From: a phage
Reading direction: 5' to 3' (one strand)
Length of the DNA stretch: 64,000 nucleotides
Assembly: GCA_012690745.1 (NCBI GenBank)
Contig: GCA_012690745.1_4086.2
Under the pieces are notes generated by a model. The model did no database searches and was not told the DNA's origin. It saw nothing but the letters and a program-made list of their open reading frames with translations. Below are positions 2,692 to 20,845 of the stretch, in pieces; within the stretch, counting starts at the first letter, position 1; each line of letters opens with the position of its first letter. The position numbers and the translations under genes were made by a program.

Positions 2692-2746
2692 GTTTTACAT
2701 CGAGAGCGGGAACACTTCCCGCTACACTTTAAGAGAGATTAATACG

Positions 2747-3109
2747 ATGGCAACTCAAATCACCAAAATTATTGCTAACCTGGTTAACTTCCGCGACGAG
2801 ATGAAAGATCTTCCGGCGGCGACGGTTAAAACTCACATTGACGCATACCGCGAACTGATTAAAATGCTGCCGCTTAAGCGTGAACAATACGCCGCTACCG
2901 TGATGCTTGATGCGATGATCCATAAGATGATCGCCAGTGATTTGACGATGGTTTATCAGTATATGGGCGAAAATTTCGCGGTGTGTAGTAAGCCAGTACC
3001 AGGGATGGCAACAACTGAGGAATTGCACGGCTTAAACTTAAAACAAGATGCATGGGATAATATGCCTCGTTTCCTGGTATGGGCTGACAGTGGCAAAATT
3101 TACAAATAA
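2747..3109 (+). CDS. hypothetical protein
   Basis: Track ORF 2690..3109 trimmed to ATG 2747 (track ATG lies in the -10 TATAATG); protein starts MATQITK. Confidence 0.6.
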   Translation: MATQITKIIANLVNFRDEMKDLPAATVKTHIDAYRELIKMLPLKREQYAATVMLDAMIHKMIASDLTMVYQYMGENFAVCSKPVPGMATTEELHGLNLKQDAWDNMPRFLVWADSGKIYK

Positions 3110-3123
3110 GTTTAATAAAGTAC

Positions 3124-3151
3124 TTGCAAACTATGTTTAATGGCGTATAAT
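3124..3151 (+). promoter_or_regulatory. sigma70-like early promoter with 5' hairpin (3163-3182)
   Basis: -35 TTGCAA 3124-3129, -10 TATAAT 3146-3151. Confidence 0.7.
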
Positions 3152-3204
3152 GTTTTACATCAGGTGGGGAATAGTTCCCCACTATATAAGAGGATTAAAA
3201 AAAA

Positions 3205-3444
3205 ATGGCTAAATCAAAAATGTTCTTAGGTCACAAAAACAAAACTCATTGGAATGTAAGCCTGTGGATTAATAACGATGAGGGATTGTATCGGTTGGCC
3301 CTGGACTTTATTGCCGCCAATACTAATCGCAATGATGCGGCCCGTCATATGATGTTATTTTTAGAACAGACTGGACAAGATAAAACACCGGACGGATTCA
3401 AATATAGCACTACTGCGATCCGTGCGGCGATGGTTGGAATGTAA
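3205..3444 (+). CDS. hypothetical protein
   Basis: Track ORF; RBS GAGGA upstream. Confidence 0.6.
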   Translation: MAKSKMFLGHKNKTHWNVSLWINNDEGLYRLALDFIAANTNRNDAARHMMLFLEQTGQDKTPDGFKYSTTAIRAAMVGM

Positions 3445-3464
3445 TAGAATTTATTTAAAGTACT

Positions 3465-3493
3465 ATCATTTTTTTGCGATAGTACTTTATAAT
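3465..3493 (+). promoter_or_regulatory. promoter-like element (good -10, poor -35)
   Basis: -10 TATAAT 3488-3493; flanks resemble the promoter at 15935. Confidence 0.3.
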
Positions 3494-3530
3494 AGTGTTT
3501 TATTCATACACCAACGATAAGGGCAACAGC

Positions 3531-3797
3531 ATGAATATTAAGTATTTTGCGACGCGTGAACAAGCTCGGATCGCCGCACGCCAGGACGGGGCAACGTTTA
3601 AAGATATGGGAGCGGGATCGGCAAGTGGTAAACGTTGGGCCATTGTAAAGCGTAGTACGGCCAGATCATTACAGTACTGGTTAGCGGCCTTAAAAAGTCC
3701 CGATAGTGTATCGCGTCGAGTGGTAGAAATAAAGCTCGACCGAAAGGGCAACCGCGTGACCGTGTACCGTACTAAAAAGATTGCAGTACTTGAATAA
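3531..3797 (+). CDS. hypothetical protein (paralog of 16012..16407)
   Basis: Trimmed from track 3495; shares FATREQARIAAR...TFKDMG...RW and DRKGNRVTVY with 16012..16407. Confidence 0.6.
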   Translation: MNIKYFATREQARIAARQDGATFKDMGAGSASGKRWAIVKRSTARSLQYWLAALKSPDSVSRRVVEIKLDRKGNRVTVYRTKKIAVLE

Positions 3798-3804
3798 AAA
3801 GTAC

Positions 3805-3832
3805 TTGCAAACTATGTTTAAAGGCGTATAAT
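3805..3832 (+). promoter_or_regulatory. sigma70-like early promoter with 5' hairpin
   Basis: -35 TTGCAA 3805-3810, -10 TATAAT 3827-3832; hairpin gagcgggaactcttcccgc follows. Confidence 0.7.
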
Positions 3833-3884
3833 GTTTTACATCGAGAGCGGGAACTCTTCCCGCCTATAACCTGGAGTAATAAAA

Positions 3885-4115
3885 ATGACTAATATGTATA
3901 TGACTGAAGTTAAAACCGTAAAAGATACTACCACGAATAAAACTACTTACTTACAGCGGATCTGTGGTGTATGGCAACGTATCAGCAAATCAAAGTACTT
4001 TAAATTAACATCATATGCAAACCGTTCTGATTCATTCAGTACTGAAATAAAAGGTAATAAAGTACACCAATACGGCACTTATTATTATTACAGCCTGGAC
4101 GCGATTGCAGTATAA
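3885..4115 (+). CDS. hypothetical protein
   Basis: Track ORF; RBS GGAG. Confidence 0.55.
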   Translation: MTNMYMTEVKTVKDTTTNKTTYLQRICGVWQRISKSKYFKLTSYANRSDSFSTEIKGNKVHQYGTYYYYSLDAIAV

Positions 4116-4145
4116 GCAGTTTACAAATCTTTACAATTGCCGGTA

Positions 4146-4174
4146 TTGACTTATTTTGTCAGTACTGGCATAAT
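4146..4174 (+). promoter_or_regulatory. promoter (TTGACT/CATAAT class) preceding inverted-repeat element pair
   Basis: -35 TTGACT 4146-4151, 17-nt spacer, -10 CATAAT 4169-4174. Confidence 0.55.
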
Positions 4175-4197
4175 GTATTCATTGGCAGATAAGCCGT

Positions 4198-4272
4198 AGC
4201 CCATAGGGTGCGGGAGTGTATCTATAGAAAAATTAGTTTAGTATAGTTACAATTGTGCACCCGGTGGGTTAG
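4198..4272. repeat. Inverted pair of the cccaYagggtgc element (A copy 4198-4227, inverted B copy 4241-4272)
   Basis: agcccatagggtgcgggagtgtatctatag and inverted gtgcacccggtgggttag; family also at 2104, 2265, 2328, 6333, 10644, 12327, 14679, 17987, 20241. Confidence 0.6.
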
Positions 4273-4364
4273 CTGTTGTCATGGGGTATATTATGCCAGT
4301 ACTTGATAATGCTGTCAATACTTTTTTTTACTATCCAGTACAGAAAACTATTTTTAAAAAGTAC

Positions 4365-4392
4365 TTGCAAACTATGTTTAAAGGCGTATAAT
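4365..4392 (+). promoter_or_regulatory. sigma70-like promoter driving a conserved ~80-nt leader / candidate small RNA (4395-4475)
   Basis: -35 TTGCAA 4365-4370, -10 TATAAT 4387-4392; leader near-identical to 14797-14875. Confidence 0.65.
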
Positions 4393-4394
4393 GT

Positions 4395-19258: not shown

Positions 19259-19278
19259 TAACTAAAACAAAGTATAAT
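19251..19278 (+). promoter_or_regulatory. sigma70-like promoter with 5' hairpin (19289-19307)
   Basis: -35 TTGCAT 19251-19256, -10 TATAAT 19273-19278; hairpin gggggagatatcctccccc. Confidence 0.7.
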
Positions 19279-19325
19279 GTTTTGCATAGGGGGAGATATC
19301 CTCCCCCACTAAAAGGAGTAATAAA

Positions 19326-19550
19326 ATGGCTAACTTTGATGAACTGATGCGGGAAGTAGCTAACCTGGCAGAAGAGAAGAAATCATTCGATTCTATCTAT
19401 AACACCGCTCACCGTGATTCAGTACTGGCATGTACTCAGGATCAAAAAGATGAACTAATCGCCACCTATCATGAAGCATGGAAGTACTACCGACAATGGG
19501 AGAAAGAAGAAAGTGAGTCTACCATTGACGGCCTCAATAATCTAATCTAA
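19326..19550 (+). CDS. hypothetical protein
   Basis: Track ORF; RBS AAGGAG. Confidence 0.55.
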   Translation: MANFDELMREVANLAEEKKSFDSIYNTAHRDSVLACTQDQKDELIATYHEAWKYYRQWEKEESESTIDGLNNLI

Positions 19551-19569
19551 AAGTTTTATTTCAGTACTA

Positions 19570-19598
19570 TTGACATAGCTTGATAGTACTGATGTAAT
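19570..19598 (+). promoter_or_regulatory. sigma70-like promoter (weaker -10)
   Basis: -35 TTGACA 19570-19575, -10 TGTAAT 19593-19598. Confidence 0.5.
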
Positions 19599-19626
19599 AA
19601 CTTTACTAACTACAAGGGGAAACATA

Positions 19627-19884
19627 ATGGAACAGTTCACACAATATCGGGTAAATCCTCAAGCTATGGCCTACGTAGAAGACCATAAAACATTACCAGT
19701 ACAGACACCAATCAAAGGCCGTATCTATCGTGCTATGCAGTGGAATAACGCCTATAATGGCTATAAAGCGGTAGCGGCTGCAATGTACTTAGGGGATGGT
19801 GAATGGTTTGATCCAAATAATCCTGGTGCACTAGATAGTACTGAACAAATGACATGGGCCGACTATATCGAAGATATCTCATAA
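19627..19884 (+). CDS. hypothetical protein
   Basis: Track ORF; RBS AAGGGGAAA. Confidence 0.55.
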   Translation: MEQFTQYRVNPQAMAYVEDHKTLPVQTPIKGRIYRAMQWNNAYNGYKAVAAAMYLGDGEWFDPNNPGALDSTEQMTWADYIEDIS

Positions 19885-19891
19885 AAACTAT

Positions 19892-19919
19892 TTGACAGTA
19901 CTACAAGATAATGTATAAT
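19892..19919 (+). promoter_or_regulatory. sigma70-like promoter with 5' hairpin
   Basis: -35 TTGACA 19892-19897, -10 TATAAT 19914-19919. Confidence 0.75.
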
Positions 19920-19972
19920 GTTTTACATAGAGCGGGGGAATAGTTCTCCCGCACCTTTAGGAGTAAAACATT

Positions 19973-20173
19973 ATGTCAATCGCTAACGAATTGGTTGCAG
20001 TACTGAATGAAGCAAAAGCCAACCGCATCGATGTACAGATCAAAGAGCTTGGCAATGGCTTGATCGGCTGTACTTGTTCCGTGCAAACGGCTACCGATTA
20101 TCGGGAAGTGGAATCACTCGAATCACTGGTACGGTATATTAAAATCCTGGTAGAAGATTGGAGAATCATCTAA
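19973..20173 (+). CDS. hypothetical protein
   Basis: Track ORF; RBS TAGGAG. Confidence 0.5.
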   Translation: MSIANELVAVLNEAKANRIDVQIKELGNGLIGCTCSVQTATDYREVESLESLVRYIKILVEDWRII

Positions 20174-20190
20174 CAAAAAAGAATAAAAAA

Positions 20191-20270
20191 GGGATTGACT
20201 CTGGTCAGTCCCTTTGCTATTATATACGCATAGACAAAAACTAGCCCACAGGGTGCAGAGAAGTATCTGT
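20191..20270 (+). promoter_or_regulatory. Repeated intergenic module copy 4
   Basis: Hairpin gggattgac-tctg-gtcagtccc; -35 TTGACT 20195-20200, -10 TATTAT 20218-20223; element 20241-20270. Confidence 0.55.
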
Positions 20271-20346
20271 AAGATAGTTAATAACGGTGAGTAACTATCT
20301 GCTGGTGGATGTAATTCCAGTACTCAAAACTATTTCAAAAAAAGTA

Positions 20347-20375
20347 TTGACAAAGTATATCAGTACTGCAATAAT
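20347..20375 (+). promoter_or_regulatory. sigma70-like promoter (extended -10 TGcAATAAT)
   Basis: -35 TTGACA 20347-20352, -10 AATAAT 20370-20375; a different GC-rich hairpin follows. Confidence 0.55.
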
Positions 20376-20428
20376 GTATCTCGTAGGGCGGCAATAGTGC
20401 GACGGCCCACAAAGTTAGGAGATTCAAA

Positions 20429-20755
20429 ATGAGTACTTCAATCGCTATCGTTAAAGCTTTCATCCGTACCAATTTCGACCGCATTACTGTTGATGGTAAT
20501 GATCGGGAAGTAGAATACTCTTTCATCGTTGCACAAACCGCAAACGGTGCACGCTATATCTTAAACGATAGTGAAGCTAACCACTACTTCTATAATAAAG
20601 GATTACACTATATCCCTAGCGAAGTAGTCTACACTAAGATGAATAAATTAGTAGACAAGATTAACGCGAAAGGTACTATAGATTTACAGTACTGGACCGA
20701 AACAGATCCAGAATACGGATCACATCGTTACCTGAATCCAGGTATTAAAATGTAA
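20429..20755 (+). CDS. hypothetical protein
   Basis: Track ORF; RBS TAGGAGA. Confidence 0.6.
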   Translation: MSTSIAIVKAFIRTNFDRITVDGNDREVEYSFIVAQTANGARYILNDSEANHYFYNKGLHYIPSEVVYTKMNKLVDKINAKGTIDLQYWTETDPEYGSHRYLNPGIKM

Positions 20756-20762
20756 AAAGTAC

Positions 20763-20790
20763 TTGCATAGTACTTAGAATCAAGTATAAT
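20763..20790 (+). promoter_or_regulatory. sigma70-like promoter with 5' hairpin
   Basis: -35 TTGCAT 20763-20768, -10 TATAAT 20785-20790. Confidence 0.7.
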
Positions 20791-20845
20791 GTTTTACATA
20801 GAGAGGGGGGAAATGGTTCTCCCTCCTAAATTAAGGAGTTTTATC

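Follow-up and report, generated by a model that had tools for sequence, protein, structure and literature searches.

What is the short GC-rich hairpin that recurs behind the early promoters of this phage, and what does it do? We analyzed the stretch shown above, which is 64,000 nucleotides (nt) of contig GCA_012690745.1_4086.2 from GenBank assembly GCA_012690745.1. We call this whole stretch the window. The initial annotation described a covarying hairpin at the 5' end of most early transcripts and proposed that it stabilizes the mRNA or is recognized by an RNA-binding factor. We find that the hairpin is real and under selection. It is well supported that the hairpin serves as the stem-loop module in a ~95-bp cassette for early-gene expression, a repeated unit that precedes most of the tiny ORFan genes of the terminal-repeat region. 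Going beyond the initial annotation, comparisons with other phages indicate that this promoter and 5' untranslated region (UTR) cassette is of the promoter-early stem-loop (PeSL) type, that it has been exchanged horizontally, and that its array lies in the equivalent of a direct terminal repeat (DTR).

Between 2.6 and 21 kb we found 35 sigma70-like promoters on the + strand. A canonical hairpin follows 23 of these, and its stem starts 8-14 nt past the -10 hexamer (mode 12). Another three are followed by a long-loop variant, whose stem starts at about 4405, 7263, or 14802 and which has no open reading frame (ORF) behind it, and nine have no hairpin. So it is correct that most early promoters have the hairpin, but not that nearly every one does. 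The canonical stems are 7-9 bp, the loops are 3-5 nt, and the G-rich 5' arm always comes first; the initial annotation had given an offset of about 10-15 nt and loops of 3-4 nt. Two of its four examples (2705-2723 and 15186-15204) read exactly as described. The example given as 6007-6025 is one nt longer, with a 4-nt loop and a basal G.U pair, and the one at 19289-19307 has 7 bp and a 5-nt loop instead of 8 bp and 3 nt. A promoterless copy directly before a ribosome-binding site (RBS) does exist, at 5172-5191 rather than 5173-5192.

The order of elements in the cassette is an AT-rich stretch, (aGTAC)TTGCAA or TTGACA, a 16-nt spacer, TATAAT, gtTTTACATc(aa/gag), the hairpin, 5-10 nt, a Shine-Dalgarno sequence (SD), and ATG. 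Many of the promoters match 10-11 of the 12 consensus positions and eleven match all 12. The 22 nt 5' of the -35 box are 79% A+T, versus 62% for the region. All 24 hairpin copies are followed by an SD-like purine run and then by an ATG that is 36-43 nt from the start of the stem. The ORFs behind the cassettes encode hypothetical proteins of 40-200 amino acids, and all of the hairpin copies lie within 2.7-20.8 kb.

Megablast of positions 2500-8500 gave 88-98% identity, with patchy coverage (44-90%), to jumbo coliphages of the PBECO4/121Q/G17 group (genus Asteriusvirus), which indicates that the window is from an Asteriusvirus of this group. The annotated DTR of vB_Ec-M-J (21,525 bp) aligns to the window from 973 (its position 1) to ~21,680 (its end), so the hairpin interval of 2705-20826 is essentially the DTR-equivalent region. 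Published DTRs in the sister Asteriusviruses Sharanji and fEgEco12 are 20.7 and 21.0 kb, and the DTR of Muenster, a relative of RaK2, is 20.0 kb. The DTR-equivalent region is densely filled with hypothetical + strand ORFs of the size given above. Judging from its consensus sigma70 promoters and from other phages with long DTRs, this region is probably the first to enter the cell and the earliest to be expressed.

Is the structure itself selected? Between 2.5 and 21 kb, there are 16 G-first and 2 C-first perfect GC-rich stems of at least 7 bp, while 0.5 ± 0.75 are expected from 100 dinucleotide shuffles; the other 43 kb of the window contain only 3. Folded singly, the hairpins have energies of -10.6 to -15.3 kcal/mol and z-scores between -2.4 and -3.7. 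We also ran a covariance model, with filters off, at every position of the 64 kb. It gave 23 + strand matches at E < 0.02, all of them known copies at 2.7-20.8 kb, and nothing credible outside that interval. The 24th copy, at 19289, reached only E = 0.93. (The model was built from tetraloop copies; its seeds x1 and x2 are triloop copies with one loop A added for register, and this padding affects the model alone, not the sequences that were counted.)

Covariation across copies had been suggested as a check, which we ran as pair counts against shuffles. Pairing holds for 97.9% of cells across 79 distinct copies, taken from the window and from six other phages, versus 83.6% with the 3' partners shuffled. 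Two-sided changes occur in 7 of the 8 pairs, and none of 500 shuffles reaches any of the observed measures. If the partner is slid by 1-3 columns, pairing falls to 58-78%. These results bear out the view that the arms differ yet stay complementary. A loop-anchored alignment of 49 distinct hairpins gave 96.7% paired versus 77.8%, with 38 different arm combinations, but since the structure was used to fit both alignments, and since duplication relates the copies to one another, all of these figures overstate the independence of the changes, which counts against our interpretation. (Plain MAFFT alignments, A1 and A2, were out of structural register and unusable for pair counts, and alignment A4 also includes some reverse-strand matches of palindromes.) Despite these caveats, the diversity of arms, each with its complement, is hard to explain without selection for pairing: they include GGGGAGAA, AGCGGGAA, GTGGGGAA, GGGAATGAA, GGGGATACA, GGGCGGCA, and GGGGGTA.

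Selection for pairing could act on RNA or on DNA. G.T oppositions are frequent, with the G on the 5' arm, and these would be A.C mismatches on the other strand. When promoter-proximal segments were folded as RNA in both orientations, the sense strand was better in 42 cases, the antisense strand in 15, and the two were similar in 29 (Wilcoxon p = 2e-5). In wobble-rich copies the gap is up to 3-6 kcal/mol. A strand-symmetric count of internal mismatches gave 24 G.U versus 11 A.C (p = 0.04), where several of the A.C cases are register artifacts or stems from outside the family; the energy comparison is the cleaner test. Because the G.U wobbles favor the sense fold over the antisense fold, these data favor selection of the structure in the transcript. 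And since the structure is kept on the mRNA-sense strand, the hairpin acts as RNA.

The hairpin might instead work in the DNA, as a repressor operator, an N4-type cruciform or hairpin promoter, or a recombination site. Most copies are perfect or near-perfect palindromes just past the start site, which is the classical position for an operator. Junctions of indels and swaps are often at or beside a hairpin (5172, 6471, 8090, 9958, and 18948), and one crossover in phage RB49 was mapped inside a PeSL loop (PMC2839356). But the G.T wobbles occur almost only where the sense strand tolerates them, and we consider a DNA-level role very improbable. We rejected the palindromic operator because the half-sites differ among copies in one genome, so that one protein could not read them all: there is no common half-site, the changes are compensatory, and there are at least 10 arm combinations in the window and 38 overall. 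N4 does have 5-7 bp GC-rich stems with 3-nt loops in its first-entering DNA. However, its three promoters have conserved -11R, -10G, and -8G, which the virion RNA polymerase reads on extruded template-strand DNA. In the window, the loops and the adjacent stem bases vary, a consensus sigma70 promoter precedes each hairpin, and the G.U wobbles point to RNA, so we rejected this type of promoter as well. No N4-like virion polymerase has been reported for this phage group, although we did not search for a polymerase gene.

If the hairpin acts as RNA, is it a terminator? The 8 nt 3' of the stem contain 1.65 T on average (range 0-3), as compared to 6-7 at the three canonical terminators in the array (7148, 7873, and 16431), and none of the 24 hairpins passes a terminator scan. 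Without a U-tract, the hairpins are not intrinsic terminators. Across the 64 kb, there was no Rfam match at the gathering threshold, and none fell on the hairpins at E ≤ 5 in 1-24 kb; ARAGORN found no tRNA. The canonical terminators at 7090-7175 and 7836-7900 are near-identical (AGCCCACT-nnnnn-AGTGGGCT and then a T-run). These two have weak matches to the Rfam family Trp_leader (E = 0.34 and 0.018, under the gathering score), which most likely reflect mere resemblance to a terminator.

A related proposal comes from the PeSL cassettes, whose stem-loop has been read as a terminator or attenuator (PMC2839356; PMC4122927). By analogy, the hairpin would damp both upstream transcription and transcription from its own promoter, so that expression does not build up along the array. 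In RB49, the drop in lacZ expression caused by one G-run/C-run stem-loop was close to that caused by the rrnB T1 terminator (PMC2839356). Also, promoterless intergenic copies exist, and the ARNold-based annotation of G17 calls at least one hairpin a terminator (L001:20966-20985, the ortholog of the copy at 5172). But besides the missing U-tract, a hairpin past its own promoter would throttle the gene that it serves, and canonical terminators are used in the array where they are needed. We view attenuation as improbable. Annotation pipelines have labeled some such hairpins as terminators, as in G17, and these labels are probably wrong.

How widespread is the cassette? We drew relatives from the GenBank phage set (protein-anchored searches of IMG/VR gave only 121Q and RaK2). 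The cassette architecture is present in 121Q and in G17, where 19 kb hold about 24 copies. In the distant Klebsiella phage RaK2 we found 6 copies over 20 kb, whose arms are quite different but whose offset is unchanged, and the Erwinia jumbo phage Hallingskeid has 10 copies, mostly with ACAAC loops and with stems that start only 8-10 nt past the -10. Arms in these two phages include GGGAATGAA, GGGGATACA, and GGGGGTA/TATCCCC. We did not expect to find the cassette in unrelated coliphages, but it is also in W70 (Vequintavirinae) and muut (Justusliebigvirus). Whole units of cassette and ORF are common to these phages and the window, at 70-89% nucleotide identity. In W70, the hairpin is also found at the same offset behind non-homologous promoters with TAAATT as the -10 site. 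Whole early ORFan genes with their cassettes that W70 and muut (Stephanstirmvirinae) have in common with the window, at 78-89% nucleotide identity, are at 8074-8589, 15134-15579, 6450-6737, 5154-5497, and 3205-3446. This sharing suggests that unrelated families of large coliphages have recently exchanged early genes.

Across seven phage sequences, 85 family-type hairpins are linked to a promoter. Five others are promoterless but followed by an RBS: 5172 in the window, L002:10630 in 121Q, L005:7484 in W70, and L006:4023 and L006:9846 in muut. The W70 copy precedes the same gene as the copy at 5172. The orthologs of the 5172 copy lack a promoter in 121Q and W70 and have one in G17. That the hairpin and RBS persist without a promoter in four phages suggests that the element also works, or at least survives, in polycistronic RNA.

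The window differs from G17 and 121Q by indels of 245-411 bp, each of which is one promoter-hairpin-ORF unit. Breakpoints lie inside cassettes in 34 of 52 cases, with cassettes comprising 19% of the region, but this may simply reflect that cassettes form nearly all of the intergenic DNA, which also counts against our interpretation, and some breakpoints are double-counted because two 121Q loci overlap. At 15499-15595 and 18359-18459, high-scoring segment pairs overlap, with the cassette repeated at both ends of the junction. One gene can have different types of hairpin before it in different phages. Between orthologous hairpins, most differences are in the loop (CTC/CAC, TGG/TAG, TAG/AAAC, or ATGG/ATGA). 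Because cassettes have been swapped between genes, an ortholog-by-ortholog table of substitutions was too noisy for a formal count. In the literature on Asteriusvirus and on RaK2-like, rV5-like, and phi92-like phages, we found neither transcript-start or RNA-seq data nor a description of these hairpins, and none of the accessible genome papers for Asteriusvirus, CBB, and rV5 mentions them.

What would such a hairpin do in the mRNA? Our favored explanation, to which we give an even chance, is that it is a sequence-independent structural cap and insulator of early mRNA ends. From the established start-site preferences of E. coli RNA polymerase, transcription would begin about 8 nt past TATAAT, at the conserved A of CAT (the 8th nt). 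This leaves a predicted unpaired tail of 1-7 nt, usually 5. The hairpin would form co-transcriptionally at about +2/+8 to +25, which agrees with the initial placement of the hairpin near the 5' end: it lies inside the first ~25 nt of the predicted transcripts. Since there are few terminators between units, it would also be intercistronic in read-through transcripts. At the end of its own transcript, the hairpin would hinder 5'-end-dependent attack by RppH and RNase E; within read-through RNA, it would block 3' exonucleases or the spread of processing. It would also keep the pyrimidine-rich 3' arm and the upstream RNA off the SD, in line with the SD accessibility predicted with and without the 5' arm, as given below. 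Each shuffled ORFan would thereby get a standard, stable, and translatable 5' UTR. As a by-product, the conserved cassette would provide homology for recombination, so that promoter-hairpin-ORF units could be inserted, deleted, or swapped within and between phage families. Stem-loops or leaders that stabilize mRNA from the 5' end are known for ompA, papA, and T4 gene 32. If the hairpin is a functional RNA, then it is a compact and portable 5' UTR module for the very first genes of several unrelated families of large coliphages, and a natural counterpart of the synthetic 5' hairpins that stabilize or insulate mRNAs.

Several considerations weigh against the cap and insulator. The predicted tail, at usually 5 nt, appears to exceed what classical 5' stabilizers reportedly tolerate (Emory, Bouvet and Belasco 1992); these lose their effect past a tail of about 2-4 nt. 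The predicted tails and the promoterless copies weaken the initial idea of an mRNA 5' stabilizer. Nine promoters have no hairpin, and some of these have an exact hairpin-less version of the same leader (4505 and 14900), so early expression does not require the hairpin. A purely structural role does not account for the universal G-arm-first orientation, though common descent may explain it. The RB49 analog sits in the promoter spacer and, by its position, cannot cap the 5' end of its own transcript. Furthermore, the measurement made on a PeSL stem-loop was of terminator-like attenuation (PMC2839356). Finally, our literature searches turned up no mapped ends of transcripts, half-lives, or expression measurements for any cassette-bearing phage.

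The orientation of the arms would be explained if the hairpin were a translation module. The 3' arm resembles an anti-SD (UUCUCCCC), and the hairpin would hold it off the SD. The SD-like 5' arm would then be an anti-anti-SD or a ribosome standby site, and cutting or unfolding of the 5' arm would free the 3' arm, which would then mask the SD and so silence the early gene. Consistent with this, the predicted unpaired probability of the SD is 0.77 with the hairpin intact and 0.54 with the 5' arm removed, but this is one calculation without a control set, and any C/U-rich 8-mer beside a purine-rich SD gives such an effect. The SD is always 5-10 nt past the hairpin, even in the promoterless copies, and in the cassette at 20803, CTCC in the 3' flank pairs with GGAG of the SD. 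On the other hand, arms such as TTCCCGCT have little complementarity to the SD, and no trigger for switching is known. A translation switch seems distinctly doubtful to us.

Alternatively, the hairpin might mark early mRNAs of the phage by binding a phage or host RNA-binding protein or nuclease. The mark could spare these mRNAs from phage-induced decay of host mRNA, shut them off in the early-to-middle transition (as with Nun or RegA/RegB), or make RNA polymerase resistant to termination (as with nut/BoxB). In line with a mark, the element occupies a fixed position in nearly every early 5' UTR and is absent elsewhere, and its sequence is conserved beyond the structure: it has a GGG core, GAA/TTC at the top of the stem in Asteriusvirus, and the G arm always first. 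The commonest 5' arm, GGGGAGAA, contains GGAG, the motif at which T4 RegB cleaves early mRNAs, and an Srd-like protein is encoded by the rV5-type phages that have the cassette. However, many copies lack GGAG (such as those with AGCGGGAA or GTGGGGAA), and no candidate protein was identified. Both loops and arms vary widely between genera and within one genome (at least 10 arm types in the window). Loops such as TAG, ATGG, CGG, CAC, CTC, ATGA, and ACAAC differ within one genome and between orthologs, and 56 distinct hairpins have 24 loop sequences of 3-6 nt. The free variation of the loops argues against a loop-specific RNA-binding factor and weakens the initial suggestion of a recognition site. 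Also, the cassette is found in three unrelated phage families, all of which would need the factor, unless it is a host protein. We think that a factor-bound mark is unlikely.

A broader version of this idea is that the structure and the GGG core form a shared tag for early mRNA, whose cassettes move among large virulent enterobacterial phages of at least three unrelated families. Its reader would be either an exchangeable phage factor or a common component of the host, such as the degradosome, RppH, S1, or RNA polymerase. We hold this to be a speculative and unlikely proposal. If it were true, then the early messages of these phages would have privileged stability or translation during host shut-off and would be silenced later in a coordinated way.

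The individual hairpins and the other features of the array are listed in Table 1.

Table 1. Hairpins and other features of the early region (positions in the window; hairpins are written as 5' arm-loop-3' arm)
Feature	Position	Strand	-10 or promoter	Detail or basis
DTR-equivalent region	973..21680	+		mapping of vB_Ec-M-J DTR 1-21525; holds the whole cassette array
Array of ~95-bp early cassettes	2650..20850	+		sequence reading, promoter scan
AGCGGGAA-cac-TTCCCGCT	2705..2723	+	-10 at 2686	-12.5 kcal/mol, z -3.7
GGTGGGGAA-tag-TTCCCCACT	3163..3183	+	-10 at 3146	
GCGGGAA-ctc-TTCCCGC	3847..3863	+	-10 at 3827	
GGCGGGGA-atgg-TTCCCGCC	5172..5191	+	promoterless	20 nt 5' of ATG at 5211
AGCGGGAA-tag-TTCCCGCT	5753..5771	+	-10 at 5734	
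GGGGAGAA-atgg-TTCTCCCT	6007..6026	+	-10 at 5989	basal G.U
TAGGGGGA-gcgg-TTCCCCTG	6471..6490	+	-10 at 6457	two wobble pairs; offset only 8 nt
AGGGGGA-gcggt-TCCCCCT	6793..6811	+	-10 at 6774	
GAGGGGGAA-acgg-TTCTCCTTC	8093..8114	+	-10 at 8075	two G.U; sense -11.0 vs antisense -5.4 kcal/mol
GGGGAGAA-atgg-TTCTCCCT	8412..8431	+	-10 at 8394	
GGGGAGAA-atga-TTCTCCCC	9939..9958	+	-10 at 9921	
GGGGGAA-atgg-TTCTCCC	10168..10185	+	-10 at 10150	internal G.U
AGGGGAAA-cgg-TTTCCCCT	10765..10783	+	-10 at 10746	
GGGGAGAA-tag-TTCTCCCC	11199..11217	+	-10 at 11181	
GGGGAGAA-tag-TTCTCCCC	13320..13338	+	-10 at 13302	
GGGGAGAA-atga-TTCTCCCC	13942..13961	+	-10 at 13924	
GTGGGGAA-tag-TTCCCCAC	15186..15204	+	-10 at 15168	
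GAGGGGAA-tgg-TTCCCTTC	15547..15565	+	-10 at 15527	G.U; TTCCCCTC in G17 and 121Q orthologs
AGGGGGAA-atgg-TTCTCCCT	18100..18119	+	-10 at 18081	G.U
GGGGAGAA-tag-TTCTCCCC	18404..18422	+	-10 at 18386	
GAGGGGGAA-atgg-TTTCCCCTC	18955..18976	+	-10 at 18937	
GGGGGAG-atatc-CTCCCCC	19289..19307	+	-10 at 19273	7 bp, 5-nt loop
GCGGGGGAA-tag-TTCTCCCGC	19932..19952	+	-10 at 19914	G.U
GAGGGGGGA-aatgg-TTCTCCCTC	20803..20825	+	-10 at 20785	
Long-loop variant GACGGGGAAC...CTTCCCGTT	4403..4470	+	cassette promoter at 4387	no ORF behind
Long-loop sister copy	start about 14800	+		sequence reading
Long-loop sister copy, degenerate	start about 7263	+	promoter at 7249	sequence reading
RCCCAnnGGGTGC motif starts	4200, 10646, 12331, 14683, 17991, 20245	+		sequence reading
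RCCCAnnGGGTGC motif starts	6344, 4268, 2332, 2115	-		sequence reading

The long-loop unit contains ~75 conserved nt (ggacggggaacgaaataagtaac..cccgttaagtagcccaggagtaag.cacacgaaaa). Together with its cassette promoter, it spans 4387-4480 and 14784-14880, and the next promoter is directly 3' of it. A copy is also present in the unrelated phage muut (L006:5567). This unit may be a short non-coding early RNA.

The window also contains ten short non-coding units, each with its own sigma70-type promoter and with the invariant core RCCCAnnGGGTGC about 30 nt past the -10, between variable flanks. Two of these units (4169 on the + strand and 4295 on the - strand) are convergent and overlapping. The motif is also found in RaK2 (L004) and in Hallingskeid (L007). 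The units have no Rfam or tRNA match, and their alignment has no covariation beyond a 4-bp CCC/GGG stem.

A second class of hairpin, AAAGGGATTGAC-(tccg/ttcg/tctg)-GTCAGTCCCTTT, is at 10584-10611, 14626-14653, 17929-17956, and 20188-20215. Its 5' arm contains the -35 box of the next promoter (TTGACT, 17 nt, TATTAT), which is an overlap with the -35 in the style of PeSL. This class, which is conserved in G17, 121Q, RaK2, and Hallingskeid, drives the CCCAnnGGGTGC units.

The palindrome AGTACT occurs 255 times in the 64 kb, versus 16.6 ± 4.2 expected from dinucleotide shuffles, which is a ~15-fold excess. It is found in both coding and non-coding DNA, often as cAGTACTg (for instance at 2547, 2560, 2600, 2613, 5158, 11174, and 15161). 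It lies directly 5' of many -35 boxes (aAGTACTTGCAA) and also in promoter spacers (ttAGTACTgTATAAT). Just 5' of the first cassette, within the DTR-equivalent region, there is a direct repeat of ~53 bp (ttgattcagtactgaataatagtactcctatatagaaaga...) at 2535-2640. In G17, at L001:1-12091, which is outside the part that is homologous to the window, the early array is adjoined by a run of ~1.1-kb paralogous genes on the minus strand, which are annotated as DNA condensation proteins or RCC1-like. Behind most of these paralogs, a hairpin terminator of about -12 kcal/mol is annotated.

How does the hairpin compare to known systems? Like the 5'-terminal stabilizers of E. coli (the ompA and papA 5' UTRs) and the T4 gene 32 leader, it is a stable hairpin near the 5' end of an mRNA that the RNA polymerase of the host transcribes, and its structure matters more than its sequence. 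Unlike them, it has a predicted tail of several nt, it has ~24 copies per genome, and it also occurs internally, without a promoter. The nut BoxB sites of lambda and P22, which function in antitermination by N (or, for HK022, with Nun), are likewise small GC-rich hairpins in the promoter-proximal part of phage early transcripts. But BoxB has a conserved purine-rich pentaloop that is read by N and is present in one or two copies per operon, while the hairpins described here have variable loops of 3-5 nt and one copy per gene. We identified neither a BoxA-like partner nor an N-like protein, and with no conserved loop among the 56 distinct hairpins, we rejected a BoxB-type site. Repetitive extragenic palindromic (REP) elements and the early RNase III sites of T7 are also intercistronic hairpins in multi-promoter or polycistronic RNA that can protect the neighboring message. 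In contrast, stems of 7-9 bp, as here, are too short to serve as RNase III sites. Nor do they have REP sequences, and they are in register with the promoter and the SD.

The closest match is to the PeSL cassettes of T4-type phages (RB49/phi1, T4/PST, and KVP40/nt-1; Arbiol et al. 2010, PMC2839356; Comeau et al. 2014, PMC4122927). PeSLs flank ORFans in hyperplastic regions and mediate modular shuffling, and recombination between cassettes yields mini-circles. The cassette in the window is likewise a composite repeat of ~100 bp, with an AT-rich stretch, a near-consensus sigma70 early promoter, a G-run/C-run stem-loop with G-T pairs, an SD, and a start codon. It also flanks small ORFans in a hyperplastic region, where close relatives cover only 44-90% of the sequence and differ by whole units of cassette and ORF, with indels bounded by cassettes. 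We found no similarity to RB49 by blastn, and the position of the stem-loop is different. In RB49, which we inspected directly, stem-loops such as GGGGATC-ggt-GATCCCC are mostly in the spacer that separates -35 from -10, and in T4/PST and nt-1 they are upstream of the promoter, while here all of them lie in the 5' UTR, downstream of the -10. (PMC2839356 does list a rare subclass with the stem-loop just past the -10, "just before" the start site.) The hosts also differ, as these are jumbo phages of the Asteriusvirus and RaK2 types along with rV5- and phi92-type phages, instead of Straboviridae. And here the array is within the direct terminal repeat and the stems have no U-tract. Because the compositional and genomic features of PeSLs that could be tested are present, while the position and the host range differ, we classify the hairpin cassette, by its sequence, as a positional and host-range variant of the PeSL cassettes of RB49/phi1. 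If the hairpin is a functional RNA, then the PeSL concept, in which ORFan shuffling is driven by mobile regulatory cassettes, would extend beyond T4-type phages to jumbo phages and to exchange between families. The ~24 natural variants with compensatory changes are a clean system for distinguishing a terminator, as claimed for PeSL, from an RNA stabilizer.

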